Part shown: positions 9,605-39,812 of the stretch, piece by piece
How positions within the stretch are numbered: position 1 is the first letter of the stretch
Layout of the letters: each line of letters starts with the position of its first letter
Origin: Planctomycetota bacterium
GTDB taxonomy: Bacteria; Planctomycetota; Phycisphaerae; WQYP01
Reading direction: 5' to 3'
NCBI GenBank assembly: GCA_021780285.1
Contig: JAJXZA010000134.1
Coordinates: 1 to 44,284, forward strand
Length of the DNA stretch: 44,284 nucleotides
Notes under the pieces: model-generated
Told to the model about the DNA's origin: nothing
Database searches by the model: none
Seen by the model: the letters and a program-made list of their open reading frames with translations, nothing else
Made by a program: the position numbers and the translations under genes

Positions 9605-9607
9605 TCT

Positions 9608-12539: not shown

Positions 12540-12599
12540 GCGCAAGGCGTCCCATTTGGCATCGGCGTTCTCGCCCCATGACAGCCATTGCGGCGCGGC

Positions 12600-12830
12600 T
12601 TATCTGTTGAGCGGGCGTTTGCGGCGGTGGCTGCTGCCGGGCTTCCCCGGTGCTATATTTACCACCTTGGGATGCACCAGCAACGTGGCATTTGCGCTGG
12701 ATTGGCTCGCAGTGCCGACTTGTCGGTCGGTCGTCTCCTTTCGTATAAATGCAGATTCATCTTCAATAATAATCTTAATGGCCATTGGCGTCGTAGGTGA
12801 CGAACCGTTAAATGTTACATAAGCCTGCAT
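12600..12830 (-). CDS. Hypothetical small protein (76 aa)
   Basis: ATG at 12830 (MQAYVTFNGSS...) follows GAGGAA with 5-nt spacing. No recognisable family. Lies at the edge of the AT-rich island. Confidence 0.3.
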   Translation of the reverse strand: MQAYVTFNGSSPTTPMAIKIIIEDESAFIRKETTDRQVGTASQSSANATLLVHPKVVNIAPGKPGSSHRRKRPLNR

Positions 12831-13581
12831 GACATTCCTCACTTATAAAAATAGTGTTGCGCTTGCCGCTCGATGATAGAGCTGCTTTCCTGGCCGCAAG
12901 ACGGTGCATCGAGGAACGTCCATGTTCAACCGCGTTGGTGCCCTGCAGGACGACAGTGCGGCTACGGCCCGCTGGGTTGAAATAGTTGCCGATATTTAAC
13001 GATAACCTCGGAGAAAGCTATGTTTAAAATACATGATCTCATAGGTAAAACTCCTTGATATTTACTTACAGGCGACCTTTTTACAGGTGTTTAGTGGGCA
13101 TGAACGTCGTGATTTACGACTCATGTGCAACCAGCAGTACGTCAATAGCCATCCATGACAATTCTTACTCGCGAAGCAGATATCTTCACGAAACGATAAG
13201 AATAGTTTGACGCATTGGATAACAAATTTAAATACGGGGTTGTATACTTTTTGGCTCCAATTATTTCCGCAATACAGCATAAGAAATACACCTATATAGC
13301 CATCAGATGTTTTGGACTTTGGCTGTTCTATTGTGGCCACAAAGCGCAAGGGAGTTGTTTGGTGAAGAAGTCAGAATTTGGTACGAGTTGGTGAAGGGAT
13401 ATTGCGAAAGTTCATTGCACGGGTGTGCCAAGAACGGGTCGTAAAACTTGGATGTTCTTGTGCCAGCGTTGCTGGCGGATGAGCTGCGCCCAAAGGCCGC
13501 GTGGTGCTTGGCAAACAGGTAATTGGTTTGGCGAGGTTGCCTCGTTGCGGCGAAGTATAGTCGTAGGGGGATAGTCCATTT

Positions 13582-13881
13582 TCAATGGTGGCAAAAGCGT
13601 TGAGGATCGCGGGCATAATCAGCGAGGCACTCTGCTGAGCAGAAATACAGTACCAAGTCACGCTCGATGGCTTGGGCCATTGCTGTAGTGGGGGTGAGCG
13701 TCGTTCCGCACACGGGATCTACCATTTTGCGATGATTGCGAGCCTTTGTAGCGACTTTGACAACCGCAGGGAGGGCGGCAGGGCTTAGACTTGTTGTGGC
13801 ATGTTCAAGGATACGCTGCCTGCGAGCCTGCTTGCGCGTGGCTATCTCTGCAATTATTTTGACATAAGGTTGTTTATTCAT
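13582..13881 (-). CDS. YHS-domain small protein (99 aa from the internal ATG)
   Basis: The C-terminal VDPVCGTTL-x16-LYFCSAECLADYARDPQRF fits the YHS/TRASH-type pattern (DPVCG...YFCS..C...F..dP). The N-terminal half is basic (IATRKQARRQRILEH). Start uncertain: track start 13917, ATG 13881. Confidence 0.5.
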   Translation of the reverse strand: MNKQPYVKIIAEIATRKQARRQRILEHATTSLSPAALPAVVKVATKARNHRKMVDPVCGTTLTPTTAMAQAIERDLVLYFCSAECLADYARDPQRFCHH

Positions 13882-14334
13882 CGCCAGACCCAATCCATAC
13901 ATAACACCATTATCCACGCCACAGGCAACTCGCCTCCGTACAGGTATTCATCATGGCAGATACCGAATGGAAAAAAATCGGGAAATGACGGTAAAATCCA
14001 TGGGATGGGAGCGGTTTAATGGATAAGGTCATACCCTACCTTTTGTAGGGATAAATCCGATAGTCAAGCCGGCGCGTGGCAACAAAACCCGGCGACAGTT
14101 AAGTGGTGCCCTTTTTAGCTAAACTTAGCACTCGTCAAGCTGATTAAATCAACTTAGGCCAGATATGCCTTGGCCCGTTCACTGAGACTGCCGCCGTTCT
14201 GAACGTTCAAATAATTTGATGATGGCTATAATGAGCCGCTGCGGCTGTTTGGATCAGCATTTGCCAACAGTTGGCCGCTGCATTAGTTTGGGCAGTGGTT
14301 GAGGTGGGTTGATGGATTTGGGTTTTTCGCCATC

Positions 14335-16347
14335 ATGGGTTTAATGTTTCGTTTATTTGGCCGTGGCAGGCGGGCAAAGGGCGAGGTGCCTGCGGGTCAA
14401 TCGTCAGAGGTGGCGCCGCCGCGCGGGGCCAGACAGCCTGGCATGAACTCTCAGAGCCAAGACAGCTTGCCGGAGGGTGGCGGCCTGACAAATGCCGAAC
14501 TCCTCAAACGCATGTTTCAATTTGTGCGCCCCGTAAAAGCGACGGCCATTGTGGCCTGCGCGCTGGTAGCCGTGGCGGTACTGCTGGATACCTCGGCGGC
14601 CAATTTAACGCGCATTATTATTGATCAGGTAAAAGATCATCTACACACAGCTAATGTCGCCGACGCCGTCGGCCGGTCTGCGGGGCAATTGTTTGCCGGG
14701 CCGCTGCGGCACGTGGTGCTGCTGATAGCGGTACTGACGGCACTGGTAGTGGGTTCGAGCTTTAACGGGCTTCTGCGAAATATTGTCAACACGCGTCTGA
14801 GTATGGATATGGTGTATCACATGCGGGCCGCCGTGTACGACCAGCTTCAACGGGTGGGCTTTGGCTTTCATGACGTGCACCCGAGCGGGCAATTGATCAA
14901 CCGCGCTTTATCTGATCTGCACAATATCCGCTTTTTTGTAAACCTATCGCTGGTGCAAATTACTGAAATTGTTCTGTATGTTATCGGTTATGATATTCTC
15001 CTATGGAGCATCAACCCGTGGATTGGCCTTGTGGCGCTCTTGCCCACGCCTTTTTGGTTTATGTACCTGCGGCATTTCAGTCGGCGGGTGCAACCCATTC
15101 AAAAGCGGTTGATGGCGTCCGGCGATGAACTCGTAACGGTGCTAAGCGAAAATGTCGCCGGCGTGCATGTGGTTAAGGCATTCGCCACTGAAACAACCGA
15201 AGTAAAAAAATACAATCAGACCGCGGACGTATTTTACGGTCATGTTATGCAGAATGTGGGCATGTACAGCAACTTTGTGCCTATTTTTCGGGGCATTGCC
15301 ATTGCCTCCAGCCTTACATTGTTCTGGCTGGGAAGTATTTTGGTGGTGCGCAAAAGCCTGCAGGTCGGCGACCTGATTGTGTTTGGCGTGGCGATGGGCA
15401 ATATTCTCAGCCGGCTGCAGCAACTCAATCAGATCAGCACGCAGTATCAGCAGGCTATTGTGTCGGCCCGGCGATTTTTTGAAATCCTCTGTGCGCCGCC
15501 CACCATTGAGCAATTGCCCGACGCTCCACCGCTGCCCGCCGGCGAAGGATCTATTGAGTTCAGAAACGTCACCTTTGGCTATTCGAGCCGGCATCCGGTG
15601 CTGCACGATGTTACGTTTTCTGCGCCGGGCGGCTCGGTGATTGCCCTGGTCGGGCCTACCGGGGCAGGTAAATCCACACTGGTGCAATTGCTGGCCCGCT
15701 TTTACGACCCGCAAAGCGGCGCTATTTGCATTGATGGCTGCGACATCAAAACCGCGCGGCTGGCAAGCGTTCGCGACAGCGTCGGTTTTGTATTTCAGGA
15801 AACGTTTTTATTTTCTGATACGGTCGCAGCCAATATCCGCTACGGACACGCGAGCGCCACCGATGGGGAAATAGAAGCCGCGGCACGCATTGCCCAGGCA
15901 CACGAATTTATTATGGAACTTCCGTACGGGTATGAGACCATTTTAGGCGAGCGCGGCGCCACGTTGTCCGGCGGGCAGCGGCAGAGGCTGGCCATAGCCC
16001 GCGCAATTGTGGCCAACCCGCGTATTCTGGTTCTTGACGATGCCTTGGCCGCGGTAGACCCCGAAACTGAAAAGCACATCCGCCGGGCGCTCGCACTGGT
16101 TATGGCACATCGTACCGTCATGGTGATTGCGCACCGGCTCAGCACGGTAAAGGCCGCCAATATGGTTCTGGTGCTTGAAGACGGCCGCATTACCCAAATG
16201 GGCACCCATGCGCAGCTTATAAAACAGGCGGGGCATTACCGTGACATCGCCCGGCTGCAGCTTGCCGGCGATGAAAACTCGCTTCTGGCTGAAACGCGGC
16301 CGCGTCTGGGTGCGGCCACCGGTGTTGTGCCGGAGATTTTGCCATGA
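14335..16347 (+). CDS. ABC exporter subunit, fused TMD-NBD, carrying the degenerate Walker B
   Basis: Six-helix type I exporter TMD followed by the NBD: Walker A GPTGAGKST, signature LSGGQRQRLAIARA, Walker B ILVLDDALAAVD (Asp where the catalytic Glu normally sits). ATG 14335; the track TTG is at 14299. Confidence 0.88.
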   Translation: MGLMFRLFGRGRRAKGEVPAGQSSEVAPPRGARQPGMNSQSQDSLPEGGGLTNAELLKRMFQFVRPVKATAIVACALVAVAVLLDTSAANLTRIIIDQVKDHLHTANVADAVGRSAGQLFAGPLRHVVLLIAVLTALVVGSSFNGLLRNIVNTRLSMDMVYHMRAAVYDQLQRVGFGFHDVHPSGQLINRALSDLHNIRFFVNLSLVQITEIVLYVIGYDILLWSINPWIGLVALLPTPFWFMYLRHFSRRVQPIQKRLMASGDELVTVLSENVAGVHVVKAFATETTEVKKYNQTADVFYGHVMQNVGMYSNFVPIFRGIAIASSLTLFWLGSILVVRKSLQVGDLIVFGVAMGNILSRLQQLNQISTQYQQAIVSARRFFEILCAPPTIEQLPDAPPLPAGEGSIEFRNVTFGYSSRHPVLHDVTFSAPGGSVIALVGPTGAGKSTLVQLLARFYDPQSGAICIDGCDIKTARLASVRDSVGFVFQETFLFSDTVAANIRYGHASATDGEIEAAARIAQAHEFIMELPYGYETILGERGATLSGGQRQRLAIARAIVANPRILVLDDALAAVDPETEKHIRRALALVMAHRTVMVIAHRLSTVKAANMVLVLEDGRITQMGTHAQLIKQAGHYRDIARLQLAGDENSLLAETRPRLGAATGVVPEILP

Positions 16348-18356
16348 TAAGCACTGTTTCATCACCAGCACGTCTTACCGTGCCGCAACGCATCCTCAAC
16401 TGGGTTGCCGGTGGGCGGTTATACCCTGGGGGCATTGGCGGAGGCTCGCGGGCGCAAAGCGGTTCGCGCGACCCGGCGGCCGGGCCTGAGCATGAAGCCG
16501 ACTACAAGCCGCTCGATTGGAAGGTTATTCGCGGCATTTTGGAATGGATGCGGCCATACTGGCGACTCTATGCGTGGACGACGGTGGTGGGCTTTCTGGT
16601 GAACTTTCTGGAAATGATTACCCCGCGGTACATGCAGCAACTCATAGATACCGACATTCCCGGCAAGGTGGCTAATCTGCAGGCGAGCCTTGCGGCCGCT
16701 GTATTGGGATATGTTCATGCGCCATGGGGGCATGAGCTTCAGCAGCTTTCAGGCCATTCGCTGGCGTATCTGAATATAGCGCTCACCATTGCGCTGTGGG
16801 CCGTCACCATGCTGCTATCGCTGCTGCTGCAGCGCTATGGCATCGCGACCACCTGCCGCATCGGCGAAAATGTACTTTTCGCCCTGCGAAAGCGCGTTTT
16901 TAATCACCTTCAGGCGCTTTCGATGAGTTACTATGATCGCACCAAATTCGGCCGAATTTTAACCCGCGGCACCAGCGATATAGATTCGATGTATCAAACC
17001 ATTGTATGGGGCATCAACACGCTGATCGGCAACGTACTTCTCATGCTGATTGCAGCGGGCATTCTGCTGCTGCTCGATTGGCGCATTGGCCTGGCTGTGC
17101 TCTGGCTTGGGCCGGTGTTGTATGTGCTTAACAACGTCTATCGCCGGCGTATTGGGGCGGCATGGCGGCGCTCGCGTGAGGGCTTTACACGCGTGAGCAC
17201 CAACCTGGCCGAAAATATTTCGGGTACGCGCGTGGTGGCGGCTTTTAACCGCCAGGACGAAAACCTGGAGGCTTTCAACAATCTTCAGGAAATGAACACC
17301 GCCAACAACCTGCAGGTGGCGGTTATCAACGGTGTGTATCAGCCGTTGTTGGGGGTTATCGGCTTTTTGGGCAAAGTCATTATTCTGCTTTTTGGCTCGT
17401 ACCTGGTGCTGCATACGGCGCTGCACGCGGCCCCGCATCCATTTACGGTCGGCAAACTTGTCGCCGCCTATATTTACTGGGATTGGTTCATGGGGCCGGT
17501 CATAAACTTCGGCAATTTTTACAACGACAGCATGATGGCCATGGCGTGTGCCGAGCGTGTGCAGGCGCTGTTGGCCCTGCAGCCGCAGGTCAAAGATATG
17601 GCCGATGCAACTGTGCTGCCGCCGCTGCGCGGCGATGTCGAGTTTGACCGCGTAAACTTCAGCTATTCACCCGATAAGCCGGTGCTGCATGATATTTCGT
17701 TCGCCGTGGCTGCCGGGCAAACCGTGGCGCTGGTGGGCCATACGGGGTGCGGAAAATCTACTATTGTGAGTTTGATCTGCCGCTTTTATCAACCGCAAAG
17801 CGGACGCATACTTGTGGATGGGCGGGACATCGCCGCGGTTACCGGCGAAAGCCTGCATAAGCAGATGGGCATTGTTTCGCAGAATAACTATTTATTCAGC
17901 GGAACCGTGCTCGACAACATTCGTTATGCCCGGCCGCAGGCCACGCGTGCCGACGTGATTGAAGCAGCCCGGCAGCTTAACAGTTACGAGGCGATAGAGC
18001 GGCTTAAAAACGGATTTGACACCGAAGTGGGTGAGCGCGGCGGATCGCTGAGCCTTGGCCAGCGGCAGCTCATTTGCTTTACGCGGGCGTTTTTGGCCAA
18101 CCCGCGCATTTTGCTGCTCGATGAAGCCACAAGTGCCGTAGACACTCATACCGAACTGCTGCTGCAGCAAGCCATCGAAAAGCTTGTGGCCAACCGCACC
18201 ACGTTTATTGTGGCCCATCGGCTAAGCACGATTGTCAATGCCAACCTGGTGCTGGTACTGGATCATGGCCGTATTATTGAAAGGGGCAGCCATCGTGAAT
18301 TGCTGGCGCTCAATGGCCGCTATGCCGCACTGTACCGGGAGTTTACGCAAACATGA
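16344..18356 (+). CDS. ABC exporter subunit, fused TMD-NBD, carrying the canonical Walker B
   Basis: ATGA overlap with the upstream partner, and GGAG 8 nt upstream. Walker A GHTGCGKST, Walker B ILLLDEATSAVD, non-canonical signature LSLGQRQLICFTRA. Confidence 0.9.
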   Translation: MISTVSSPARLTVPQRILNWVAGGRLYPGGIGGGSRAQSGSRDPAAGPEHEADYKPLDWKVIRGILEWMRPYWRLYAWTTVVGFLVNFLEMITPRYMQQLIDTDIPGKVANLQASLAAAVLGYVHAPWGHELQQLSGHSLAYLNIALTIALWAVTMLLSLLLQRYGIATTCRIGENVLFALRKRVFNHLQALSMSYYDRTKFGRILTRGTSDIDSMYQTIVWGINTLIGNVLLMLIAAGILLLLDWRIGLAVLWLGPVLYVLNNVYRRRIGAAWRRSREGFTRVSTNLAENISGTRVVAAFNRQDENLEAFNNLQEMNTANNLQVAVINGVYQPLLGVIGFLGKVIILLFGSYLVLHTALHAAPHPFTVGKLVAAYIYWDWFMGPVINFGNFYNDSMMAMACAERVQALLALQPQVKDMADATVLPPLRGDVEFDRVNFSYSPDKPVLHDISFAVAAGQTVALVGHTGCGKSTIVSLICRFYQPQSGRILVDGRDIAAVTGESLHKQMGIVSQNNYLFSGTVLDNIRYARPQATRADVIEAARQLNSYEAIERLKNGFDTEVGERGGSLSLGQRQLICFTRAFLANPRILLLDEATSAVDTHTELLLQQAIEKLVANRTTFIVAHRLSTIVNANLVLVLDHGRIIERGSHRELLALNGRYAALYREFTQT

Positions 18357-18548
18357 TACGGGCCATTGCGCCGAGTTTTAGCCCCGCCGATATGGTAAAA
18401 TCTTCAAGCTGCCAAGTCGGGGCGATACGCAAAGCGCGAACCCCTGGCTTACCGGGGTAATTGCCCTGCGTGAGTGGTGCGCTGTGGCAGGCGAAGGCGG
18501 CAAGAGGCCCATTGATGCAACAAAAACTTTTGGTAAAGCGTGCCGACA

Positions 18549-19724
18549 ATGTCCAATAAAAAAACAGTCGTGGTTGCCATGTCGGGCGGGGTAGATTCTT
18601 CCGTGGCGGCGGCGCTTTTGCAGCGCCAGGGCTATAACTGCATTGGTGTATTCATGCGACTCGGCGGCGAACTGGGCGGACAGACTCTATCAGAACAGCC
18701 GGAGCTGGTGGCCTGCTCTCCGCAGAAGGCTAAAGCAGCCAAGGCGCATCATCAAGGGTGTTGTTCCACCGGTGATGCCGCTGACGCCCGCTATGTTGCC
18801 GGGCTGCTTAACATTCCATTCTATGCGCTAAACTTTCAGAACGATTTTGGCCGCATCATTGATTATTTTGTCGGCGAGTACAATCGCGGTCGCACGCCCA
18901 ACCCGTGCGTGCGGTGCAACGAGTACCTGAAGTTCGGGAAATTGGCCCAGTACGCGCGTGCCGTCGGGGCCGACTATGTCGCCACCGGCCACTATGCCCG
19001 CATCGTGCACGATGCCGTCGGCGGGCCGCAAATATTGCGCGGCATAGACAGCGCCAAAGACCAGAGCTATGTACTTTTTGGCGTGCCCCCGACGGAACTG
19101 CCGCGTATGCTGCTGCCCATCGGTGATTATCCAAAGTCAGAGGTGCGGGCCATGGCTCGCGAACTGGGGCTGCCCGTTTTCGACAAGCCTGACTCGCAGG
19201 AAATATGCTTCGTGCCCGACAACGACTATTTTGGGTTAGTTAAGCGAAAGTCGCCGCAAACCGTGCGGGCCGGCGATATTGTGGATGGCTCGGGCAATGT
19301 GGTGGGGCGGCATGAAGGGCATCAGGGCTTTACCCTGGGGCAGCGGCGGGGGGTGGGCGTCGCGTTTGGCTACCCCATTTATGTGACCAACATTGATGCC
19401 GGCGCTAACACGGTGCAGGTAGGCCCTCGCGATGAGTTGCTGCATCGGCGGCTCCTGGCGCGCGAAGTTAACTGGCTGGCCCCCCATGCCGACGGCCCCA
19501 TCGCGTGTACGGCCAAGGTGCGATACAACTCCCCGGCGCAGCCGGCGCGAGCTTATCTGAACGGTTCGGATGAACTCATGGTGGAATTTGATCAACCGGT
19601 TGCGGCGATCACGCCGGGGCAGGCCGTGGCGTGTTACGACGGAGATCGCCTGTTGGGCGGTGCCTGGATTGACCGTATTTGCGACGAGGCGCCCGCAGCA
19701 GAAAAGGCGGAAGCGGCCTCGTGA
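18549..19724 (+). CDS. mnmA: tRNA 2-thiouridine(34) synthase
   Basis: PP-loop VVVAMSGGVDSSVAA. Catalytic Cys region NPCVRCNEYLKFG. GADYVATGHYAR and DSAKDQSYVLF. ATG at 18549. Confidence 0.92.
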   Translation: MSNKKTVVVAMSGGVDSSVAAALLQRQGYNCIGVFMRLGGELGGQTLSEQPELVACSPQKAKAAKAHHQGCCSTGDAADARYVAGLLNIPFYALNFQNDFGRIIDYFVGEYNRGRTPNPCVRCNEYLKFGKLAQYARAVGADYVATGHYARIVHDAVGGPQILRGIDSAKDQSYVLFGVPPTELPRMLLPIGDYPKSEVRAMARELGLPVFDKPDSQEICFVPDNDYFGLVKRKSPQTVRAGDIVDGSGNVVGRHEGHQGFTLGQRRGVGVAFGYPIYVTNIDAGANTVQVGPRDELLHRRLLAREVNWLAPHADGPIACTAKVRYNSPAQPARAYLNGSDELMVEFDQPVAAITPGQAVACYDGDRLLGGAWIDRICDEAPAAEKAEAAS

Positions 19725-20662
19725 CGTTCACCCTTGCATCGCCTGAAACTGTTAACAGCATTAGTATTGTGCATGCCGGGGCGCTCGGCGATACGCTGCT
19801 GCTGTGTCCGCTCTTGCGGGGCATAGCCAAGAGGTTTCCGCAGGCGCGGCGGCACGTCGTAACCCGCAGCGAGTTTGGTCGGTTATTGGTTTACCTGCAG
19901 TTGGCCGAAGACTTTGCCAATGGCGATGCGCCCGAGGCAACGGCGCTTTTTGCTGCTGGTGCATTGGAGTACGCACCGCGCCGTCCAACCTGGCTGAATT
20001 GCGATGTGCTCATCAGTATGGTCGGCAGCGGCAGCGATGCCTGGGCGGAAAATGTCCGTGCGATCTACAAAAGTGACAGTATATTATTTGTAAACCAGCG
20101 CCCGCCATCAAACTGGCAAGGGCACGCAGTTGAGTTTCTGCAGGCCCAACTGCAGCCGCTGGATATACCCACGGTTGCCGCTGTGCCGCAGTTTAATATC
20201 AATGGCCCTGTGCTGCTGCACCCAGGCAGCGGAGGGCGGGCGAAGTGTTGGCCTGCGGAACGATTTTTAACCCTGGCACACAGGCTCGCATCCGCTGATA
20301 TTGCCGTTGAAATTATTTTAGGCGAAGTGGAATTGGATCGTTGGCCTTGCGGGGATATTGCCGCGTTTACCGCTGCTTTTGCGGTGCATCTGCATCCGTC
20401 TTTATGCGAATTAGCCGACAGGCTGGCTGCGGCGCGCGCCTACATCGGCAACGACAGCGGTGTAAGCCATCTTGCCGGCGAAATGGGCATACCGTCACTG
20501 GTGCTCTTTGGCCCAAGCCCGGCAAATGTATGGCGTCCGCTGGGGCCGCAGGTGCAGGTTGCGCAAGCGCCTGCGGGCGATTGGGCCGCGCTTTCCGTGG
20601 CCGAGGTGCAGGCGCGCGTGCAACGCCTGCTGGCAAAGGCTGGCACCAGGACCGCCATGTAA
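19721..20662 (+). CDS. Glycosyltransferase family 9 (heptosyltransferase-like)
   Basis: GT9 hallmarks: ISIVHAGALGDTLLLCPLL, LLHPGSGGRAKCWPAERF, YIGNDSGVSHLAGEMGIPSLVLFGPS. The probable GTG start at 19721 overlaps the mnmA stop (GTGA). Confidence 0.75.
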   Translation: MTFTLASPETVNSISIVHAGALGDTLLLCPLLRGIAKRFPQARRHVVTRSEFGRLLVYLQLAEDFANGDAPEATALFAAGALEYAPRRPTWLNCDVLISMVGSGSDAWAENVRAIYKSDSILFVNQRPPSNWQGHAVEFLQAQLQPLDIPTVAAVPQFNINGPVLLHPGSGGRAKCWPAERFLTLAHRLASADIAVEIILGEVELDRWPCGDIAAFTAAFAVHLHPSLCELADRLAAARAYIGNDSGVSHLAGEMGIPSLVLFGPSPANVWRPLGPQVQVAQAPAGDWAALSVAEVQARVQRLLAKAGTRTAM

Positions 20663-20850
20663 GCATTGCCAAAGCCTTTCAGCCGGATATCCGCCGTTTT
20701 ATAGGCCATTTTCAATATTTTCGCCGCTATTTTTTGAAAATAATCGCCAATTTTGTTGCTTGTCGCCGGTATGCTTGTGTTATACTTGTATAAGCGGCCG
20801 ATGAACCATTGGCAAAGCGGGGTGTTAATTTGCTGGTGCGTGAGGTTGAT

Positions 20851-21561
20851 ATGCGTGCGAAACTCACAGTTGGTAAGGGTAGTCGGGGTGGTTTTACCAT
20901 CATCGAAATGCTGGTGGTGATTCTGGTAATCGTGGTGCTCATTGCCATTGTATTGGCCGTGGGTGAGCAGGTACGCGTAAAGGCCAGGTTGGCGGTTACG
21001 CATACCGAACTGCGCAACCTGCAGGCGGCGCTGCTGCAGTTGCATCATCAGACGAATACGTACCCGGTGGATATGGCGCACTTTTTGGTGGCGTACCAGC
21101 AGATGCACGCCTACGCGATTACCGGTGGAAGCATCTGGCAGCAACATCCCAACATCATAACGCAGTTGCCTGCAACCGCGACGGTGATGGGCCAGATTCC
21201 GCCGCCTGGAGGCGTCTCTGGCCAGTTTACCGGCGTGGTTGAAGTGCTTGATGGTTTTGGCAATCCCATTCAATACATGCCGCCGACTCAGCCAAGTATC
21301 TCGAACGCTTTTTATCCGGTATCGGGTCAATCTTATACAGTGGACTCCACGACGATAATGCCGTTGCCACTACCACCACCCGCCCCACCCATTCCGCCAG
21401 TATATGTGCCCAGTGGGATAACCTCGGTAAGCAATGCCGTGCCCGCAGCCGCGCCTCATGCTCCCTATTTTTACAGTTTTGGGGTAGATGGTCCGGCGGG
21501 CGCTATCGCCAACATCAACAACAGCCCGACAGCGCAGTACATCTACTCCTACGAGCCATAA
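20851..21561 (+). CDS. Prepilin-type N-terminal cleavage/methylation domain protein (GspG-like pseudopilin)
   Basis: Class III signal ...GKGSRGG|FTIIEMLVVILVIVVLIAIVLAV with Glu at +5. GspG-like LDGFGNPIQY and YFYSFGVDGPAG blocks. ATG at 20851. Confidence 0.8.
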   Translation: MRAKLTVGKGSRGGFTIIEMLVVILVIVVLIAIVLAVGEQVRVKARLAVTHTELRNLQAALLQLHHQTNTYPVDMAHFLVAYQQMHAYAITGGSIWQQHPNIITQLPATATVMGQIPPPGGVSGQFTGVVEVLDGFGNPIQYMPPTQPSISNAFYPVSGQSYTVDSTTIMPLPLPPPAPPIPPVYVPSGITSVSNAVPAAAPHAPYFYSFGVDGPAGAIANINNSPTAQYIYSYEP

Positions 21562-31890: not shown

Positions 31891-32166
31891 TTATAAGCCG
31901 GCGCGAAGCAGACGTTCTGCCTCGGCCCAGTCCGATTCGGCGCTGCCAGGGCCAAAGCCACGGGCTAGATAAATTTTGTAGGCACGTACAGCAATCTGTT
32001 CGTGCGTCGGGTTGACGGCCGCCTTTGGCGTCGCGGCGGTTCTGGCGGGTGCGGCCAGCGTGCCGCTTCCTTTTGCTTCCGAGCGGCCGATGGGGGCGGC
32101 TGCCGCCGGCGCGGCGACTTTGGTTACAGGTGCGGGAGCGGGTGTCGTTTTTTTACGAAGTGCCAT
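31891..32166 (-). CDS. DUF2934 domain-containing small protein
   Basis: The C-terminal HEQIAVRAYKIYLARGFGPGSAESDWAEAERLL matches the DUF2934 pattern (I..rAY.i...RG...G...dDW..AE). AGGAG upstream of ATG 32166. Confidence 0.7.
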   Translation of the reverse strand: MALRKKTTPAPAPVTKVAAPAAAAPIGRSEAKGSGTLAAPARTAATPKAAVNPTHEQIAVRAYKIYLARGFGPGSAESDWAEAERLLRAGL

Positions 32167-32644
32167 TTCAAATCTCCTGAAAAAAATCTTTGGCGAGCAC
32201 CGTTTCTAAAAGCCCCAATCCGTGGGGTTTTCAGGTTGGCTACGCAGGCTGGAACTCGTGGTGCCGACCAACGGCCAACAGCCGAATGTTGCAGTAATTT
32301 CGGCCCGTTGCGCGGGGACTTGTACCCTCACGCGGTGCTCGGTGCTGACTCTCCGAAACGATTACCGAAGAATCACACTTCTGTTGTAGTAACTTATGGG
32401 ACGCGAGTCAAGCGAATGCGGGCATCCTTCCGATAGGCATGTGTGATGGGAGATTTAACGCATTTGCGAGAAATGGATGTTTTGATGCAGAGCGTGATCG
32501 GGAGTTGCTGATAATACATGGTTCCTGCGTGTATAATAGCACGTACTTAAGCAAAAAGGCCGTTTTTTTAGGGCCTGCCAAGCTTCAAGAAGGTGGATAA
32601 AAGGCTGCGGAAATTGGTTGTTTCGTACTGTTAGAGGTCGGGGC

Positions 32645-33769
32645 ATGGCTGTGCTCGCCGATGATACCCAAACAGGTGTGCAGTTTGTAGAGCCGCAATC
32701 GCCGGATGTACTGGCCTTGCAGCATGCGGTAGATGCCGCCTCCGGGCACACACCGGAGCGTTCGGGAGTGTCTTCGCTTGCCCCGGTGGTGGCTTTGCGC
32801 CCGCAACGCCGAGCTCGCCTCGGTTGGCTTAATGTATCATTTGTATGGATCGCTTCGCTGCTGATCCACGTGAGCGTATTTTTGGGCTTGTTGATCGCCA
32901 TCCGCGCTATCTCAAAGAAAATGACCCCCCAGCAGCCTCCGATGGTGGTGCCGGATTCATTTTTTCATGGCGGTAAAAAGGCTGATCGCACCGTTAATTC
33001 TGACGTCGGCGAAATGCACGCAGCTGCGCGGCATCGCGAGCAACTGGCCTCCGCGGCTTGGCAGCATTCCACATCGCCCCAGTCGCTCTCTAACTTGCTG
33101 CAGGGTGACAGCGCCAGCCAGAAGCCGGCGATTATTGGGCTTGGCTCGGGCGCTGCTGCTTCGGGTGGGCTTTTTGGGCTGCGCAGCGGTCCCGGTGGCG
33201 CGCTGGGGGTGGTTTCGCAAGGCCTGGGGCAGGGGCCCGAGACGACATTTTTTGGCGTGCGAACCCGCGCCAAAACCGTAGTTTATATTATTGATCACTC
33301 CGGCTCGATGATTAATCGGCTGCATCTGGTCAAAGCTGCGGTGCGAATTTCGGTGCATCAACTCATGCCATTTCAGCGTTTTGCCGTTATAGCGTTTTCC
33401 GATAAATATCAGGTGCTTACCGGGCGCATGCCCGTGGCTGCAAAGCCTGTTGAAGTGGCTGCGTTTGACCGAAGTCTTGATGACCTCGTAGCCGAAGGCC
33501 ATAACGATGACGAACTTCAGCCCTTCCTGCAGCCCTTTAAAGTGGCCTTTGCCATGCGACCCCAAGCTATTTACTTTCTAACGGACGGGCACTTTGACGC
33601 CCGGTTGCTTGCGCGCGTGCAGCGGTTGGAACAGACCACCCCGGTACGCGTGTATACACTCGACTTTTTGGATAGAACTCCCCGGTTCATCGCACTCATG
33701 CGAAGATTAGCCCACGAAACGGGCGGTACGTTTCATTTAATTACTCGTGCTGAGCTGGGGGGAACGTGA
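32645..33769 (+). CDS. Membrane-anchored vWA domain protein with TonB/TolA-like N-terminal anchor (intact MIDAS)
   Basis: TM anchor SFVWIASLLIHVSVFLGLLIAI (S-x3-H). Gly/Ser-rich linker. vWA fold with MIDAS residues VVYIIDHSGSM ... FLTDG. GAGG lies 8 nt upstream of ATG 32645. Confidence 0.8.
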   Translation: MAVLADDTQTGVQFVEPQSPDVLALQHAVDAASGHTPERSGVSSLAPVVALRPQRRARLGWLNVSFVWIASLLIHVSVFLGLLIAIRAISKKMTPQQPPMVVPDSFFHGGKKADRTVNSDVGEMHAAARHREQLASAAWQHSTSPQSLSNLLQGDSASQKPAIIGLGSGAAASGGLFGLRSGPGGALGVVSQGLGQGPETTFFGVRTRAKTVVYIIDHSGSMINRLHLVKAAVRISVHQLMPFQRFAVIAFSDKYQVLTGRMPVAAKPVEVAAFDRSLDDLVAEGHNDDELQPFLQPFKVAFAMRPQAIYFLTDGHFDARLLARVQRLEQTTPVRVYTLDFLDRTPRFIALMRRLAHETGGTFHLITRAELGGT

Positions 33770-33909
33770 CGCGGCTGGCACAGCTTGAGGGTTGTGTGTC
33801 AAAGTTGTCACGGTGCGGCGTATACTCCCTGGAAGGCGCCTGTGCGGCCAGCCGGCCTATTTGCTTATAAAAACGATGCTTCCGACAAAACCTGTCGGCG
33901 GGGTTTATT

Positions 33910-33927
33910 CTGGTACGCCGGTTGCAT
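33910..33927 (+). promoter_or_regulatory. Candidate sigma-54 (-24/-12) promoter
   Basis: CTGGTACGCCGGTTGCAT reads as TGGTAC-N5-TTGCA with the exact GG-N10-GC spacing. It is intergenic, about 75 nt upstream of the ATG at 34003. rpoN is present in this window. Confidence 0.5.
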
Positions 33928-34002
33928 ATAAAAGCGTCGGTGGAATGCAGGTCTCCTCCAATTTGGGCCTGCGCGCGTTAAACAACTGGCGGAGCGAATG
34001 TT

Positions 34003-35124
34003 ATGAGTCGAGCAGCTTCCGATCCTGGTGCCGGGCAGCCAAGGAAGTCAAAACCTTCCGCGAGCGGCGGCGAACCAAAGAAGGCGCCGTCAACAACTTC
34101 AAAGATGGAAAAGCTCAAGGGCGGTGCTGTTGCGGCAGGCCAGGCTTCGGATGAGTCGGAGGAGGAGGAATTAGAAACAGCCGGCAATGAATTGCCGGAG
34201 TGGGTGGATCGCTCCTTTCCGTGGATTGCATCATTTTTGATTCATGCGGGCGTGTTTCTGCTGTTTATATTTGCCTACGAGGCGATATCAACGGTGGTCA
34301 AACAACATGCCGAGCCGATTATCGTTCCGCAGGGTCTGCAGCAGAAATTCAGCAATCATCCGGGCGGCATTCCGCATCCGGGACATAACGACAACCCGAC
34401 ACGCAGCGCCCGGCAAGACCTGCAGAAGCTCACGAGCCACGCATGGAATACCAATAAGTCTCCCAAGGTTACTTCGCTGCTCAACAGTTCCAATAAATCG
34501 CTGAATATAATTGCGGTCGGCCCCAATGGCGGCACGTCATCGGGCGGCGGCCTGGCGCCGTTTGGCGTGCCCGGCGGCGGCATGGGCGACGGGCCGCAAT
34601 CAGCCTTCCTGGGCCGTGGCGGTAATGCGCGTCGTATTGTTTACATTATTGACCACGAAGGCGACATGCTCGAAAACTTCAGCTTTTTAAAGGCGCAGTT
34701 GCAAAGCTCTATAGGTAAATTGGTGCCTTTGCAATCCTTTGCCGTCATCATCTTCCGGAAAAACTACAGCATTTTGGGACCGCCGCGGCTTATGCATGCA
34801 ACGCTGCATAATAAAAATCTTTTCTACAAGCGGCTGGCTGACGTGGCGCCTCACGGACGGGCGGAGTACCGCTTTGAGCGATTTTACCGTCCATTTCAGG
34901 CCGCTTTTGAAATGCACCCACAGATTATTTACTTTTTAACCAGCGGTGCCTTTGATCCAAGGCTTATTGCCGCGGTCGCAAAGCTTAACAGTAAGCATAC
35001 GGCTCACATTTTCACTTATGCTTTTACCAACAACGATCCAACGTTTACCAAAAATCTCAAATTGCTGGCCAGTCAAAATGGCGGTGAATACCGCTATATT
35101 TCGCGTGCGGATGCGGGTGGTTAA
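34003..35124 (+). CDS. Membrane-anchored vWA-like protein, paralog of 32645..33769 (degenerate MIDAS)
   Basis: Same architecture as the upstream paralog: anchor SFPWIASFLIHAGVFLLFIF, Gly-rich linker, then IVYIIDHEGDM ... FLTSG, so the MIDAS Ser/Ser/Asp positions are replaced. GGAG lies 8 nt upstream of ATG 34003. Confidence 0.8.
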   Translation: MSRAASDPGAGQPRKSKPSASGGEPKKAPSTTSKMEKLKGGAVAAGQASDESEEEELETAGNELPEWVDRSFPWIASFLIHAGVFLLFIFAYEAISTVVKQHAEPIIVPQGLQQKFSNHPGGIPHPGHNDNPTRSARQDLQKLTSHAWNTNKSPKVTSLLNSSNKSLNIIAVGPNGGTSSGGGLAPFGVPGGGMGDGPQSAFLGRGGNARRIVYIIDHEGDMLENFSFLKAQLQSSIGKLVPLQSFAVIIFRKNYSILGPPRLMHATLHNKNLFYKRLADVAPHGRAEYRFERFYRPFQAAFEMHPQIIYFLTSGAFDPRLIAAVAKLNSKHTAHIFTYAFTNNDPTFTKNLKLLASQNGGEYRYISRADAGG

Positions 35125-35196
35125 TGGCCTGCCGCGGGCTTGTGGCACGCGGGGTTTACGACTTAAAAGATTGTTCCTACCTTTTGGAGGTTTTTC

Positions 35197-36054
35197 ATGC
35201 TTCGCAGTTTCAGGTTTGCCGGTGTCTTTCAGAAGTCTTCCGTGCGGATGGGCGCGTCGGCTGCGGCCGCAATGCTCGTCTTGGGAGGGCTTGCTAGCAC
35301 TGCGTCGGCTCAGAGCGTTGGCAGCGGCACCACGGTGTATCACCCCAATCCCATTCTTATGGGGCTGGATTACACAGTGATTGTTGTGCTGGTTTGTGCG
35401 TCGCTTGCGAGCATCGCGCTGATTATTGATGCGATCATTCACATCAAGGAATCGCGCATCGCCCCGGTCGAAACAATCGAGCATATTCGTACGCTCATTA
35501 ACGCCCGACAATTCAAAGACCTCATGGACTTTACCGCCACCGACGAATGTTTCGTCAGCAAGGCGTTGTTTGCCGGTGTGCGACGCGCTCATCTGGGTTA
35601 CTCCGCAATGCGCGAAGGGCTTGATACGGCCGCGGCCGAGCAGTCGTCAAATCTTTTCCGCCGCATTGAAATGCTTAACGTCATCGGCAATATCGGCCCG
35701 CTGATCGGTCTGCTGGGCACCGTGCTGGGTATGATCATGGCATTTATGGCCCTGCATTACACCGGTGGCAACGCCAAAGTCAACGATCTCTCGGCCGGTA
35801 TCGCCACGGCATTGTGGCATACCTTTGGCGGCCTGGCGGTGGCAATTCCATCGCTGATCGCCTTTGGCTTTTTCCGAACAAAGATTGACAAGATGGCCAT
35901 GCGGGCCACGCTGCTGTCAGAAGAATTGCTCGAATCGCTGCGCCCGCAAGATTCCAAGAGCGCTGCAACGCCAATGGGTGCTGCGGCGGCATCCGGTGGA
36001 ACGGCCGTAGCTCGCCCGGTGCCTCGTCGTGCGGAAGCTGCGAAAGAAGCCTGA
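35197..36054 (+). CDS. MotA/TolQ/ExbB proton channel family protein
   Basis: Three-TM core including IGPLIGLLGTVLGMIMAF and GIATALWHTFGGLAVAIPSLIAFGFF. Signal-peptide-like N-terminal extension. GGAGG lies 6 nt upstream of ATG 35197. Confidence 0.88.
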   Translation: MLRSFRFAGVFQKSSVRMGASAAAAMLVLGGLASTASAQSVGSGTTVYHPNPILMGLDYTVIVVLVCASLASIALIIDAIIHIKESRIAPVETIEHIRTLINARQFKDLMDFTATDECFVSKALFAGVRRAHLGYSAMREGLDTAAAEQSSNLFRRIEMLNVIGNIGPLIGLLGTVLGMIMAFMALHYTGGNAKVNDLSAGIATALWHTFGGLAVAIPSLIAFGFFRTKIDKMAMRATLLSEELLESLRPQDSKSAATPMGAAAASGGTAVARPVPRRAEAAKEA

Positions 36055-36183
36055 TCGCGCAATGTCGGTAGGCCCCCGGCCGAGCCATCGCGTGATCGCC
36101 GGGGCGGGGTTTATGCGTCCGCGGTTGTGCACGAGCCGGAAGGGACTGCTGCGGAGTCAGCGCGAATTTTGGAGTAATGCCTT

Positions 36184-36633
36184 ATGGGATTGCGTCGCGG
36201 CATCAAGCCGATGGAAAGTGAGCACGTCAATGTGACGCCGCTGATAGATGTGGTCATGTGCCTGATCATCTTCTTCCTGCTGGTTGGGCACATTGCCAAA
36301 AAGGCGGCGGTCAAGGGTGTGCATCTTCCCAACGCCAAAAACGGCGCTGATCTTGCCGACAAGAGCGGCGAGGTGATTATCAATGTCGTGCCGCGGCGCA
36401 GCGATAGTTCGGGCGTTCAGCATGCTCCAAAGATTATTGTATGGGGTCAGGATATCGGCTATGAGCAACTCAAGGCCGAGCTTCGCAAATATAAAGCGAG
36501 CAATCCTAACCTTAAACTCGTGATTCGCGCCGATAAGAGCACACACTTTAAGTATATAGCCCCGGTGCTTGAAGACTGCGCCTCGGCCGGCATTTCAAGC
36601 ATTCACTTTATGACCAAAAGGCCGAACTCTTAA
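36184..36633 (+). CDS. Biopolymer transport protein ExbD/TolR
   Basis: NVTPLIDVVMCLIIFFLL with the conserved TM Asp. Periplasmic domain LKLVIRADKSTHFKYIAPVLEDCASAGI. Confidence 0.88.
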   Translation: MGLRRGIKPMESEHVNVTPLIDVVMCLIIFFLLVGHIAKKAAVKGVHLPNAKNGADLADKSGEVIINVVPRRSDSSGVQHAPKIIVWGQDIGYEQLKAELRKYKASNPNLKLVIRADKSTHFKYIAPVLEDCASAGISSIHFMTKRPNS

Positions 36634-36666
36634 CCGGGTTCGCCGCTGTTTTATAGAAGGTGTACT

Positions 36667-37113
36667 ATGGCTGGTCGCAGAAAAGTCGGTATGCAACACG
36701 GTATGCATGTGGGGCCCAATATGACGCCCATGGTGGACGTGGTGATGGTGATCCTGATTTTCTTCATGTTAGGCAGTTCGTTTTCTTCGCCGGACTGGTA
36801 CCTTACCAACAATACCCCGGCCATCAAGGGGGGGTTAAGCAACACCAAAACCAAGCCCATGCCCGCCACCCGACTTATTATCAAGCTGGAGATGCGCGGC
36901 ACGCACACCATGGCATCGCTGCCTGGCCTACAGACCGAAGACCTTTCAGGTGAGTTGTACCATCGGCTCGAGGCTAAACGACAAGTGCTTGGCAAGGATG
37001 TGCAGGTGCTTATTAAGCCATCGGAAGATGTTCCATATCAGGACCTGATTACGGTGTATAGCGATTGCGTGGGCGCGAGGTATCAGCATGTCGCCTTTTA
37101 CGCGCCGGCCTGA
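36667..37113 (+). CDS. Biopolymer transport protein ExbD/TolR (second copy)
   Basis: NMTPMVDVVMVILIFFML with the conserved TM Asp. C-terminal VLIKPSEDVPYQDLITVYSDC. Confidence 0.88.
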   Translation: MAGRRKVGMQHGMHVGPNMTPMVDVVMVILIFFMLGSSFSSPDWYLTNNTPAIKGGLSNTKTKPMPATRLIIKLEMRGTHTMASLPGLQTEDLSGELYHRLEAKRQVLGKDVQVLIKPSEDVPYQDLITVYSDCVGARYQHVAFYAPA

Positions 37114-37241
37114 CCGGGCTGGGCATGAACTGCCGCGCGACACCCGGGGCAGCTAAGTGGCGTAGTGGAAGCTCATGTGCGGCCTGTGCCAACGGTGGAG
37201 TCGCCTGTACAGGCAAGCAACAAGGATGGAAACTCTCGGCT

Positions 37242-39812
37242 ATGAAAAATCATTTTATTGTTTGTTTAACAGGTTTGACTGCGGTAACGGCTTTGGCCGG
37301 GGCTTCCGTAGCCGCGACTGCTCCCGCCGGAATGTCGCCCCAGTCGCTTCTGCAGACGCGCTTTGTCAGTCATCTGGAAGATCTGAATTTGCAACCCTTG
37401 GTGCAGCAGGCCGCGGCCGATCATGCCAAAGGCCCCGCAGCCGGCTTGTTTCGTTCCGCTGTAATTTTCACGCAGTGGGGTAGTTACGCCAGCCATCCTG
37501 AAGAGCAGTTTAAGCTGGGCCAGGAGTTTGTCCGCGATGTGCAGGCATATTTTAAGGCCAGCGGCGGCGCGGTGGATGCCAATTGGGCGCTGGATCAGGC
37601 GAAGTTTATTTTTGCAAATATCGTTCCGCCGCTGTCAGATAAAATTGAGTATTGGTCCGGTACGCCGAAAGATTTGGCTGCTTTGCAGCCGGTGGCGCAA
37701 TTGGCGCACGACCTGCTAAAACTGGCCGCCGCCAAATTCGGCGGTACCATCGCTCGACTGAACAACGCCGTGCATTTTACCGATGCCGATGAGCAAGTAT
37801 ACATGACTGCCATGAACGGCCAAACCCAAACAGGGTATTATCAAGCCTATGGCGATTACTTTTTGGCCCTCTCGCTGCCGGCCGCCTCACCGCAGCGGAG
37901 TAAGCTGTTGGATCAATCCATAGCGCTGCTGCAACATTGGATTAAATCCGGTTCGCAGTCAGGTGTTTTATACCAGTCGCTGTTGCTGAGTGGCAAGGCC
38001 AATCTTCAAAATGGTAAATATGGCCATGCGATAAGCGACTTAACCCAAGCCCAGGCAAGCGGATCGCCCCTGTGGGTGCAATACCAGGCTAAATATCAGC
38101 AGATCGTCGCCATGCTGCGCAAGGGAGACCTCAAAGCGGCCGCTGCCAGCCAAGCCTCCTACAGCCAATGGATTCGCGATAACAAGTCCATAGACGTGCC
38201 CAGCGCACGCATGGGAGCCGAGCTTCTGCGCTACCGAATTTTGGCTCGCGATAAATCGCAGCAGCAGGCCGCTACCCAGCTTGTGCTTACTATTGTCAGT
38301 AAGGCTCCGCAGTACCAGGATCTGATCTATCAACATTTGGCGGGCGGCATCACGGGCAAGCCGAACTTCGCGGCCCTTGAGCCGATTAAAACCCTGGCCT
38401 ATGCGTGGTTGCAGGCGCACCATCGAAACAATGCACAAAGCCTCGACGCCGTCAATTACCTGCTCGCCGACAAAAGCCTTGCCCCTGATATTCGCCGGGA
38501 GGCGCTCTTGATTGGCGGCATATGCAACGGGCGGCTGGGACGGTTGGATCAATCCATTAAGATGGACGTAGAGTTTATTGAGGCAAAGCCGACCGATCCA
38601 CGGGCCAAAAATGTGCTCGATGTCGCGCTGTACCACCTGCGGCAACTCAACGAAGGCGGCGGTTCAACGCCGGGCCTTTCCAAACTCACGCTTAAGGCCC
38701 TCGATCTTGCGTACAACACGTTTCACGAAAGCAAGTGGGCGCTGCCTTATGCAACGCAGCTTGAAAAAGCCAAACAGCTTTCTCAAGCCCAGAAGGTTCT
38801 TAACACCATTCCCGGCACCAACAAGTTTTACCTGTTGGCCCATTACCAGTTGGTGCGCATAGCAACCATCGAGCTTGGCAACCTCGTGGATGAAAAAAAA
38901 TCACCGACGCAACAGCGTCAAGCGGCGCTTAACCTGATGCAGCAGTGCCAAAGCTTTCTTGCCAGTCTCGATCAGCCCCCACCCGGCACACCGCCTGATG
39001 TGATCAAAGAAGTTCGGGGCTATCGGCAGGACATTTGGTTGATCCAGGCCAGCACCGCGCTGGACCCTTTGCAGGACCCATCCGCCGCGGGCCGGGCGCT
39101 GGATAAACTGGAAGCTATCCGCAAAACGCTCTCGCCACGGCTTCAGGGCGTTGTGCTTCGGTACCGTATACGTCAGTATCAGCTCAGCAACGAACCTCAG
39201 AAGATTTTGCCGCTGGTAAAGCAATATGCCGATCAATCATCGCAAAGTGCTGATGACGTTATTCGCGGCCTGATCGGGCAATACGATTCCGAAAGCCGCC
39301 GCATTCAGAAAACCGACCCGGTCAAGGCGCAATCCATGGCCAACGACGCGGCGGCGCTGCTCAACCAGCTCATCGCGTATCTTCAGAGCAAACCGGGCAC
39401 CAAGCCGGATGAGATATACACTTATCAGCAGATTTATGCCGACGAACTGGTTCGTGCGGGCCACCCGCATCAGGCGATGGCGCTGTATAAGCAGCTTGAA
39501 AGCCAAAAGCCTCAGGACTTACGCAACTTTTTGGGCGTGGCTCGCTGCGCCTACGAAACCGCTGATTACAGTTATTCGCACAGTTTGTATGTCCGAACCA
39601 TTCCCAAGTTGACCCCCGGCTCAGAGCTTTTCTGGGGTGCGTATATCTATCTGATCAGAGGCAACCTGCGGGCGAATGCTCATCGTGATGCCACGACCAA
39701 ATCGCTTGAGCAGCTTTACGCCATTTACGGTAATCAGATCGGCGGAAAATATTACCATGCACAGTTCATGCAATTACTCAACACGTATGGCGTTTCGACA
39801 AGTTCGCAGTAA
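37242..39812 (+). CDS. Large secreted alpha-helical repeat (TPR-like) protein, function unknown
   Basis: 856 aa from ATG 37242. Sec-type signal MKNHFIVCLTGLTAVTALAGASVAA. Helical-repeat composition throughout. Co-directional with and immediately downstream of exbD2. The track ORF start 37065 overlaps exbD2. Confidence 0.7.
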   Translation: MKNHFIVCLTGLTAVTALAGASVAATAPAGMSPQSLLQTRFVSHLEDLNLQPLVQQAAADHAKGPAAGLFRSAVIFTQWGSYASHPEEQFKLGQEFVRDVQAYFKASGGAVDANWALDQAKFIFANIVPPLSDKIEYWSGTPKDLAALQPVAQLAHDLLKLAAAKFGGTIARLNNAVHFTDADEQVYMTAMNGQTQTGYYQAYGDYFLALSLPAASPQRSKLLDQSIALLQHWIKSGSQSGVLYQSLLLSGKANLQNGKYGHAISDLTQAQASGSPLWVQYQAKYQQIVAMLRKGDLKAAAASQASYSQWIRDNKSIDVPSARMGAELLRYRILARDKSQQQAATQLVLTIVSKAPQYQDLIYQHLAGGITGKPNFAALEPIKTLAYAWLQAHHRNNAQSLDAVNYLLADKSLAPDIRREALLIGGICNGRLGRLDQSIKMDVEFIEAKPTDPRAKNVLDVALYHLRQLNEGGGSTPGLSKLTLKALDLAYNTFHESKWALPYATQLEKAKQLSQAQKVLNTIPGTNKFYLLAHYQLVRIATIELGNLVDEKKSPTQQRQAALNLMQQCQSFLASLDQPPPGTPPDVIKEVRGYRQDIWLIQASTALDPLQDPSAAGRALDKLEAIRKTLSPRLQGVVLRYRIRQYQLSNEPQKILPLVKQYADQSSQSADDVIRGLIGQYDSESRRIQKTDPVKAQSMANDAAALLNQLIAYLQSKPGTKPDEIYTYQQIYADELVRAGHPHQAMALYKQLESQKPQDLRNFLGVARCAYETADYSYSHSLYVRTIPKLTPGSELFWGAYIYLIRGNLRANAHRDATTKSLEQLYAIYGNQIGGKYYHAQFMQLLNTYGVSTSSQ

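Follow-up and report, generated by a model that had tools for sequence, protein, structure and literature searches.

The present analysis concerns a locus of six genes (positions 32645-39812) carried by a 44,284-nt stretch of DNA from a Planctomycetota bacterium (contig JAJXZA010000134.1), this whole stretch being called the window hereafter. The six open reading frames (ORFs), which an earlier sequence-only reading of the window had described as co-directional, are all present on the + strand and encode two related proteins with von Willebrand factor A (vWA) domains (vWA-A and vWA-B), an ExbB/TolQ-like protein (ExbB), two ExbD/TolR-like proteins (ExbD1 and ExbD2) and an 856-aa protein. We consider, with a probability of roughly 70%, that this locus belongs to the class of vWA “force transducers” that was described computationally by Williams-Jones et al. 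2025 (Mol Biol Evol 42:msaf138, PMC12204202), and therefore that it is a new member of this class and not a new concept. The sequence-only reading had stated that no characterized system of this composition was known; this holds for experimental characterization but not for the composition itself, since the class was described in 2025 (PMC12204202). The structural elements of its interpretation are all supported here, and Williams-Jones et al. 2025 arrived independently at the same view of the class.

The published class comprises vWA proteins anchored by a helix carrying an SHLS motif and encoded near a tolQ-like gene, two heterologous tolR-like genes and a gene encoding a tetratricopeptide repeat (TPR) protein in the PVC group (PMC12204202). 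Its transducers start with a transmembrane (TM) helix bearing SHLS, which is followed by a disordered region containing a motor box, by a ~100-residue domain II and by a C-terminal vWA domain, and they were reported in Proteobacteria, Planctomycetes, Verrucomicrobia, Bacteroidetes and Rhodothermaeota (PMC12204202). The window proteins share with them: (i) the Ser/His anchor, (ii) a candidate motor-box region, (iii) the ~100-residue linker and (iv) a vWA domain instead of TonB_C or TolA_C. The seed locus of the class, from Tichowtungia aerotolerans (Kiritimatiellota), encodes two transducers and two heterologous TolR-like subunits (PMC12204202), and the window locus has the same set of two transducer paralogs, a tolQ-like gene, two tolR-like genes and a TPR gene. 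Homology with this seed is also detected at the sequence level: using the sequence of Tichowtungia transducer 2 transcribed from the supplement of PMC12204202, alignment A1 of the family (18 sequences, 24-92% identity) gave an hhalign probability of 97.3% (E=2.4e-11, 158 columns) and vWA-B gave a BLASTP match with E=6e-9.

The window locus also differs from the published members in some respects. Its vWA genes lie upstream of the motor genes and the TPR gene comes last, whereas the published vWA genes frequently lie downstream of the TPR, tolQ and tolR genes. Furthermore, the Tichowtungia transducers are ~100 aa longer than the window proteins, with an insertion in the vWA domain, and are devoid of the DxSxS motif (ILDANK and IDADK), whereas vWA-A has both DxSxS and TDG. 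This work adds to the description of the class (i) a canonical metal ion-dependent adhesion site (MIDAS) in most other planctomycete members, (ii) the degeneration of the MIDAS in vWA-B and (iii) the linkage of a DUF2934 gene to the A paralog.

Motor subunits, anchors and vWA domains

The putative pentamer subunit of the motor is a 285-aa ExbB/TolQ-like protein (35197..36054, + strand; MotA_ExbB, 4.4e-25). Its best NCBIfam match is TolQ, whose score of 79.5 bits does not reach the equivalog cutoff (221), and the helices GLLGTV and ALWHTF, with the conserved Thr, were located. The two following genes encode ExbD1 (149 aa; 36184..36633, + strand; ExbD, 6e-23) and ExbD2 (148 aa; 36667..37113, + strand; ExbD, 3e-17), whose likeness to each other is confined to the TM region. 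Both keep the TM Asp, as had been noticed from the sequence (Asp22 at 36247-36249 in ExbD1 and Asp24 at 36736-36738 in ExbD2). Every motor locus of the family encodes two ExbDs that are dissimilar to each other but both keep this Asp. As the two Asp-bearing copies are conserved as a pair in spite of their dissimilarity, ExbD1 and ExbD2 probably form a heterodimer.

vWA-A (374 aa; 32645..33769, + strand) is a transducer whose C-terminal domain matches Pfam VWA_2 (33.3 bits, cutoff 27). Its paralog vWA-B (373 aa; 34003..35124, + strand) has no Pfam match but is related to vWA-A from the TM helix through the C-terminus (BLASTP E=1e-52, 34% identity). The signal-anchor core of vWA-A (residues 66-86; 32840..32902, + strand) includes Ser71 (32855-32857) and His75 (32867-32869), and that of vWA-B, also on the + strand, includes Ser77 (34231-34233) and His81 (34243-34245); the strings that the sequence-only reading had compared with TonB are therefore those of the proteins, and the E. 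coli TonB sequence that it had given is correct against PDB 9ddo_F. Over the first 187 residues, alignment A1 has no invariant column other than Ser71 and His75, and a Ser-x3-His pair lies within the most hydrophobic helix of 99 of the 102 related ORFs found in loci from species-representative Planctomycetota genomes. The remaining positions of the anchor helix vary freely across the family: a hydrophobic residue (F, L, A, V or I) occupies Ser+11, one of Y, I, L or W is found instead of Ser at Ser+15, and these vWA helices bear no Asp.

The helix is followed by a segment that is conserved throughout the family and that we propose, on the basis of this conservation and of a TonB-like spacing, as a candidate motor box: PPMVVPDSF in vWA-A (residues 98-106; 32936..32962, + strand) and EPIIVPQGL in vWA-B (34312-34338, + strand). 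Distant members show forms such as PQPVSLLLAS or AVVEFAITT. The spacing between the His and this segment, taken in vWA-A to the start of its hydrophobic run, is 25 residues in both window proteins, as between H20 and I45 (QPISVTMV) of E. coli TonB, and the motor box of Tichowtungia is found 20-25 residues after His35.

Searches of Pfam and NCBIfam (E<=1) detected no TonB- or TolA-type N-terminal domain in the vWA proteins, but these libraries include no model of the anchor. The anchor was therefore assessed by a purpose-built comparison of profiles, accompanied by controls, in which the 58 N-terminal residues of the family were compared by hhalign with nine TonB or TolA N-termini (E. coli TonB, verified; E. 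coli TolA; seven from the supplement of PMC12204202). The two profiles align in register through the motor box with a score of 24.5 (probability 81%, E=1.2e-5); both alignments were trimmed around Ser-x3-His, so that the test is partly circular. The controls scored 9.4 (ExbD anchors from the same loci), 9.9 (reversed alignment) and 7.2 +/- 1.6 (column shuffles). Shuffles keeping the hydrophobic block in place gave 11.6 +/- 2.8, with a maximum of 21.1, and none of the 60 reached 24.5. This comparison still shows a sequence-level likeness to the TonB and TolA anchors that exceeds generic hydrophobicity; together with the conservation of the Ser-x3-His pair, it substantiates the resemblance that had been proposed initially.

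In the AlphaFold2 (AF2) monomer model of vWA-A, a low-confidence, putatively cytoplasmic tail (residues 1-60) is followed by a long helix (61-91), a mostly disordered region with one short helix (92-193) and a vWA fold (199-372, pLDDT >90). The best Foldseek matches of this last domain are the vWA domain of CMG2/ANTXR2, ITIH1 and the calcium-channel alpha2delta subunit, BatB (3ibs) being found at rank 42. The linkers of the window proteins are 112-118 aa long and contain 34-36% of Gly+Pro+Ser; across the family, they range from 95 to 160 aa (median 114), with about one third of Gly+Pro+Ser. Both the vWA fold, upheld by the VWA_2 match, AF2 and Foldseek, and the Gly/Pro/Ser-rich linker placed after the anchor had been recognized correctly beforehand. 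The transducers have no signal peptide, their N-terminal tail has a median length of ~50 residues and the anchor His is placed about as deep in the helix as that of TonB; an N-in, single-pass topology is weakly suggested for these proteins.

The MIDAS of vWA-A was delineated from alignment A1 and the family table, and comprises loop 1 (D217-H-S219-G-S221; 33293..33307, + strand) and the TDG of loop 3 (33572-33589, + strand), D217 being invariant and S219 and S221 nearly invariant in A1. The A-type proteins of the window clade keep DHSGS and TDG, but the Thr of loop 2 is replaced by Asn-Asp (EGHND). The corresponding site of vWA-B is degenerate (DHEGD at 34651-34665 and TSG in YFLTSG at 34930-34947, + strand), and in B-type orthologs the degeneration affects each of the three loops (loop 1 being DHEGD, DHAGG or DRGGN and loop 3 TSG, TNG, TKG or ANG). 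A third type of paralog occurs in Phycisphaerae (L020, L025-L034), with DHGGR or DHAGR in loop 1 and intact Ser-x3-His and motor box; it is always found alone with a DUF2934 gene upstream, and near-identical copies (L020 and L029) are carried by different contigs of one metagenome-assembled genome (MAG). Planctomycete members outside the window clade mostly keep the canonical DxSxS...(G)T...TDG set.

The last gene of the locus (37242..39812, + strand) encodes an 856-aa protein for which weak Pfam TPR matches and the AF2 model point to a secreted TPR-like alpha-solenoid, putatively a periplasmic scaffold or partner. Its model is all-alpha (40 helices, pLDDT 85) with a low-confidence, signal-like N-terminus (residues 1-32), in keeping with the secreted helical protein announced by the sequence-only reading. 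A profile search for sequence relatives in the PDB gave only chance-level matches. Foldseek retrieved long TPR scaffolds at TM-scores of ~0.2: Ctr9, Ski3, IFT-A, 9hmf_K (the periplasmic scaffold of the C. jejuni flagellum) and SprE (T9SS). As these matches are generic long TPR solenoids, the structure search assigns no specific function to this protein.

The locus combines features of several known systems. No match to TonB_C, TolA, TolB or Pal was detected at E<=1 in the six proteins (Pfam and NCBIfam; 0/6 for TonB_C, PF03544 / TIGR01352), in agreement with the proposed absence of TonB and TolA C-terminal domains, nor among the 20 other window ORFs scanned, which do not include any TonB-dependent receptor either. 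Like E. coli TonB, the window proteins have a single Ser-x3-His anchor, a segment located 25 residues after the His, a flexible spacer and an Asp-bearing motor; unlike TonB, they are devoid of TonB_C, do not conserve the Leu and the second Ser of SHLS and are associated with two different ExbDs. Furthermore, their spacer is Gly/Ser-rich with 7-10% of Pro, whereas that of TonB is a Pro-Glu/Pro-Lys rod. As for Tol-Pal, the best-scoring models for ExbB and ExbD1 are those of TolQ and TolR, although far below the equivalog cutoffs, Ser-x3-His is found as in TolA, and a TPR gene lies beside the motor genes, like that of CpoB in tol-pal operons. However, TolA C-terminal domain, TolB and Pal are lacking in the ORFs scanned, and the 856-aa protein is unrelated in size to CpoB. 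Pal was reported to be absent from Planctomycetes (PMC12204202 supplement).

Membrane-anchored vWA proteins, TPR proteins and a structural neighbor, BatB, are shared with the Bat (aerotolerance) operons, but the window locus has a TonB-type Ser-x3-His and proton-motor genes and, according to Pfam and NCBIfam searches of its six proteins, no MoxR, DUF58 or BatA_N; it was therefore not considered as a Bat operon. Williams-Jones et al. 2025 also described a second family, which associates a TPH-vWA protein having an Asp-bearing transpore helix with TolQ only, without tolR/exbD (PMC12204202). The window locus shares with it the association of vWA proteins with a TolQ-like pentamer, but was not assigned to it since it encodes two Asp-bearing ExbDs and its vWA helices carry Ser-x3-His and no Asp. 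Altogether, the locus departs in one or more defining features from each of canonical TonB, TolA/Tol-Pal, Bat and Zorya.

Distribution of the locus in Planctomycetota

The organization of the locus was surveyed in 57 non-redundant loci for which 4 kb or more of sequence follows the vWA gene on its downstream side. ExbB and two ExbDs are encoded beside the vWA gene in 21 of them; among these 21 motor loci, 16 carry a homolog of the TPR gene after ExbD2 and 10 carry two vWA genes. Relatives within the Phycisphaerae share the order vWA(-vWA)-ExbB-ExbD-ExbD-TPR, as do distant relatives and other lineages of planctomycetes, with identities decreasing from 92% to 24-27%. The conservation of synteny, which the sequence-only reading had proposed to examine in relatives, thus extends across Planctomycetota. 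In the window clade, vWA-B is the paralog that always abuts ExbB.

The nearest genomes are Phycisphaerae and Phycisphaerales MAGs (91-92% protein identity), which points to an uncultured planctomycete as the source of the window, and the locus lies among housekeeping genes (PhoH, Ffh and IspG) in a setting that is syntenic across genomes. Upstream of vWA-A, a small DUF2934 protein is encoded divergently (31891..32166, - strand; Pfam PF11154, 48.5 bits). This divergent DUF2934|vWA pair is present in 28 loci (L001, L003, L009-L034), including some without motor genes, and PhoH-DUF2934-vWA-A is a conserved block in these Phycisphaerae.

Some relatives carry additional genes. In a distant lineage (L006 and L007), a secreted 372-aa non-vWA protein is encoded between vWA and ExbB (L006 11000-12118), and an ORF of 1045 aa follows the TPR gene (L006 16310-19447). 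In L001, from a Phycisphaerales relative, a Bat-type pair (DUF58-vWA and BatA-vWA; 18211-21080) lies ~1 kb downstream of the operon; this pair is not found in the window.

The family is large. A scan of a genome collection revealed 380 loci with a relative in species-representative genomes, the best 80 of which all belong to Planctomycetota. A profile search of 1.84 billion representative proteins retrieved 1,552 clusters (50% identity) at E<=1e-30 and 8,571 at E<=1e-10. An N-terminal region is present in 139 of the 146 best representatives, and at least 90 of these 139 include a Ser-x3-His helix; several of those flagged as negative carry Ser-x3-His just beyond the scanned stretch. About one third of the closest vWA relatives (P0028, P0030, P0034, P0049, P0050 and others) have an N-terminus resembling that of a signal peptide or lipoprotein instead of Ser-x3-His, indicating that this vWA subfamily exists also in a predicted secreted or lipid-anchored form.

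Proposed mechanism and alternative explanations

If the locus encodes force transducers, the ExbB/TolQ-like pentamer would surround an ExbD1/ExbD2 heterodimer and constitute a proton-driven inner-membrane motor of the 5:2 type. vWA-A and vWA-B would be single-pass, N-in proteins whose anchor helices dock at the periphery of the ExbB ring by their Ser-x3-His face, and, as for TonB and TolA, the motor box would be captured by the periplasmic domains of the ExbDs. The motor, by rotating or by cycling between conformations, would then put the ~115-residue Gly/Pro/Ser-rich linker under tension and pull on the partner bound to the vWA domain. vWA-A could hold this partner, periplasmic or located in the outer membrane, by a MIDAS-type metal contact with one of its acidic residues, whereas vWA-B, which has lost the MIDAS residues, would presumably have another binding mode or serve as a regulator or partner. 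For the secreted TPR solenoid of 856 aa, the likely role would be that of a periplasmic scaffold or adaptor. We infer in this way a physical coupling dependent on the proton motive force, with envelope tethering, division, uptake and surface adhesion as candidate processes.

Several observations weigh against this assignment. The class itself is only computational and no deletion phenotypes were reported by Williams-Jones et al. 2025 (PMC12204202). While “many” published members have the full SHLS motif (PMC12204202), its Leu and second Ser are not conserved in the window family. The motor box of vWA-A is a coil and not a strand in the AF2 monomer model, and the positive-inside bias is weak (K+R more numerous on the N-side in 49 sequences, equal in 28 and fewer in 17). 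Metal binding by vWA-A is not certain, because the loop-2 Thr is replaced in the window clade. Furthermore, in 36 of the 57 loci, no motor genes adjoin the anchored vWA gene. These solo loci are free of N runs except one run of 100 N (L027 6218-6317), and iterated HMM searches of them gave no further ExbB or ExbD, so that the absence of motor genes does not result from masking or from a failure of detection. Close A-type orthologs such as that of L024 keep PhoH-DUF2934-vWA-A without B, motor or TPR genes nearby, and the vWA gene of L024 or of L065 (Planctomicrobium sp. SH668) is flanked only by unrelated housekeeping genes. Therefore, the linkage of vWA-A to this motor is not obligatory, and the B-motor-TPR block and the DUF2934-A pair of the window clade are separable modules. 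In E. coli, tonB is not adjacent to exbBD, and unlinked transducer genes are normal for TonB. For this reason, the solo vWA genes weaken the case for coupling but do not refute it.

These solo genes would also be expected if the vWA proteins were passive adhesion or assembly factors of the Bat type and if the adjacent ExbB-ExbD-ExbD set served another client, for example a canonical TonB whose gene lies elsewhere, in which case neither the adjacency nor the Ser/His residues would play a part in coupling. The presence of BatB among the structural neighbors of the vWA domain (rank 42) and that of the DUF58 and BatA pair downstream of the operon in L001 are in line with such a role. However, a passive anchor would hardly account for a polar Ser-x3-His pair that stays invariant in a TM helix at identities of 22-92%, motor synteny recurs at 24-27% identity, the locus has no BatA_N, MoxR or DUF58 and, given the location of tonB in E. 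coli, solo genes are no argument against coupling. We consequently regard this explanation as quite improbable. It is a little easier, though still improbable, to conceive the vWA proteins as accessory or anchoring subunits that tether or gate ExbB-ExbD1/D2, for example by holding it to a periplasmic structure by means of the vWA domain, the moved element being the TPR solenoid or an unlinked protein. Indeed, the linkage of the TPR gene to the motor is roughly as close as that of the vWA genes (16 of the 21 motor loci), the paralog always found beside ExbB is the one with a degenerate MIDAS, and the 856-aa protein has scaffolds of 5:2 machines (C. jejuni flagellum and SprE of the T9SS) among its Foldseek neighbors, with low TM-scores. 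Nevertheless, the anchor has the signature of a transducer (Ser-x3-His and TonB-like spacing) and not the Asp-bearing transpore helix of a stator, and AlphaFold3 (AF3) models of homologous systems place the TM-helix His at the TonB/TolA site of the motor (PMC12204202).

A Zorya-like or other motor-based anti-phage defence module would be a very remote explanation. PADLOC gave only a weak match between ExbB and ZorA (E=3e-4, 17.5 bits), which reflects the common MotA/ExbB fold, and the five other proteins have no PADLOC match. There are no ZorB/C/D-like genes, and the neighborhood is made of housekeeping genes that are syntenic across genomes; the locus was therefore not identified as a defence system.

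Proton-driven 5:2 motors have long been thought to reach the outer envelope through TonB and TolA only. A third, vWA-tipped type of transducer would widen this picture and could explain the role of ExbBD-type motors in bacteria where TonB or Pal is rare or absent. A 2012 paper (PMC3422733) provides a context for another client of ExbBD-type motors; this context and the reported absence of Pal make a further client plausible. In a stress transcriptome study of R. baltica, the induction of exbB/exbD and a vWA protein are mentioned separately, without any link between them. A more far-reaching proposal, which we consider as unlikely but worth stating, is that anchored vWA proteins are the main, perhaps the sole, clients of ExbB/ExbD-type motors in Planctomycetota, where they would replace TonB and TolA and be coupled to the outer envelope by a metal-dependent MIDAS contact. 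In that case, (i) the MIDAS contact would replace beta-strand augmentation and may be force-sensitive, as in integrin I-domains, (ii) MIDAS-competent A and MIDAS-dead B proteins would divide labor, and (iii) the motor would power a planctomycete-specific process, such as the tethering or constriction of the outer membrane in FtsZ-independent division, or energy-dependent uptake of macromolecules. The class was established computationally in 2025 and not by this locus, and the contribution of our survey lies in testable details: it shows a strong constraint on Ser-x3-His and on the post-helix segment in transducers that are often unlinked from the motor, and it singles out residues and pairs of genes with which genetic testing could begin.

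Other features of the window

A sigma-70-like match (10 of 12 consensus positions; weak) is located ~108 bp upstream of vWA-A (32508..32537, + strand). As the region contains fewer such sites than expected from shuffles (2 versus 5.6), this candidate promoter is only a lead. The promoter/terminator scan revealed no convincing terminator after the last gene, and Rfam and tRNA scans of the window gave no matches.

Elsewhere in the window, a region of ~1 kb (12540-13580) is devoid of ORFs of at least 100 aa and of Rfam or tRNA matches; its GC content is 0.51, compared to 0.57-0.60 around it. This region is bordered by a TolC-like gene on one side and by a small YHS/TRASH-like ORF (13582-13917, - strand) on the other. 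A tripartite efflux operon of the MacA/MacB/TolC type (7401-12539) encodes HlyD, an ABC ATPase, a MacB/FtsX permease and an OEP. Further downstream, two fused ABC exporters are encoded in tandem (14299-18356).

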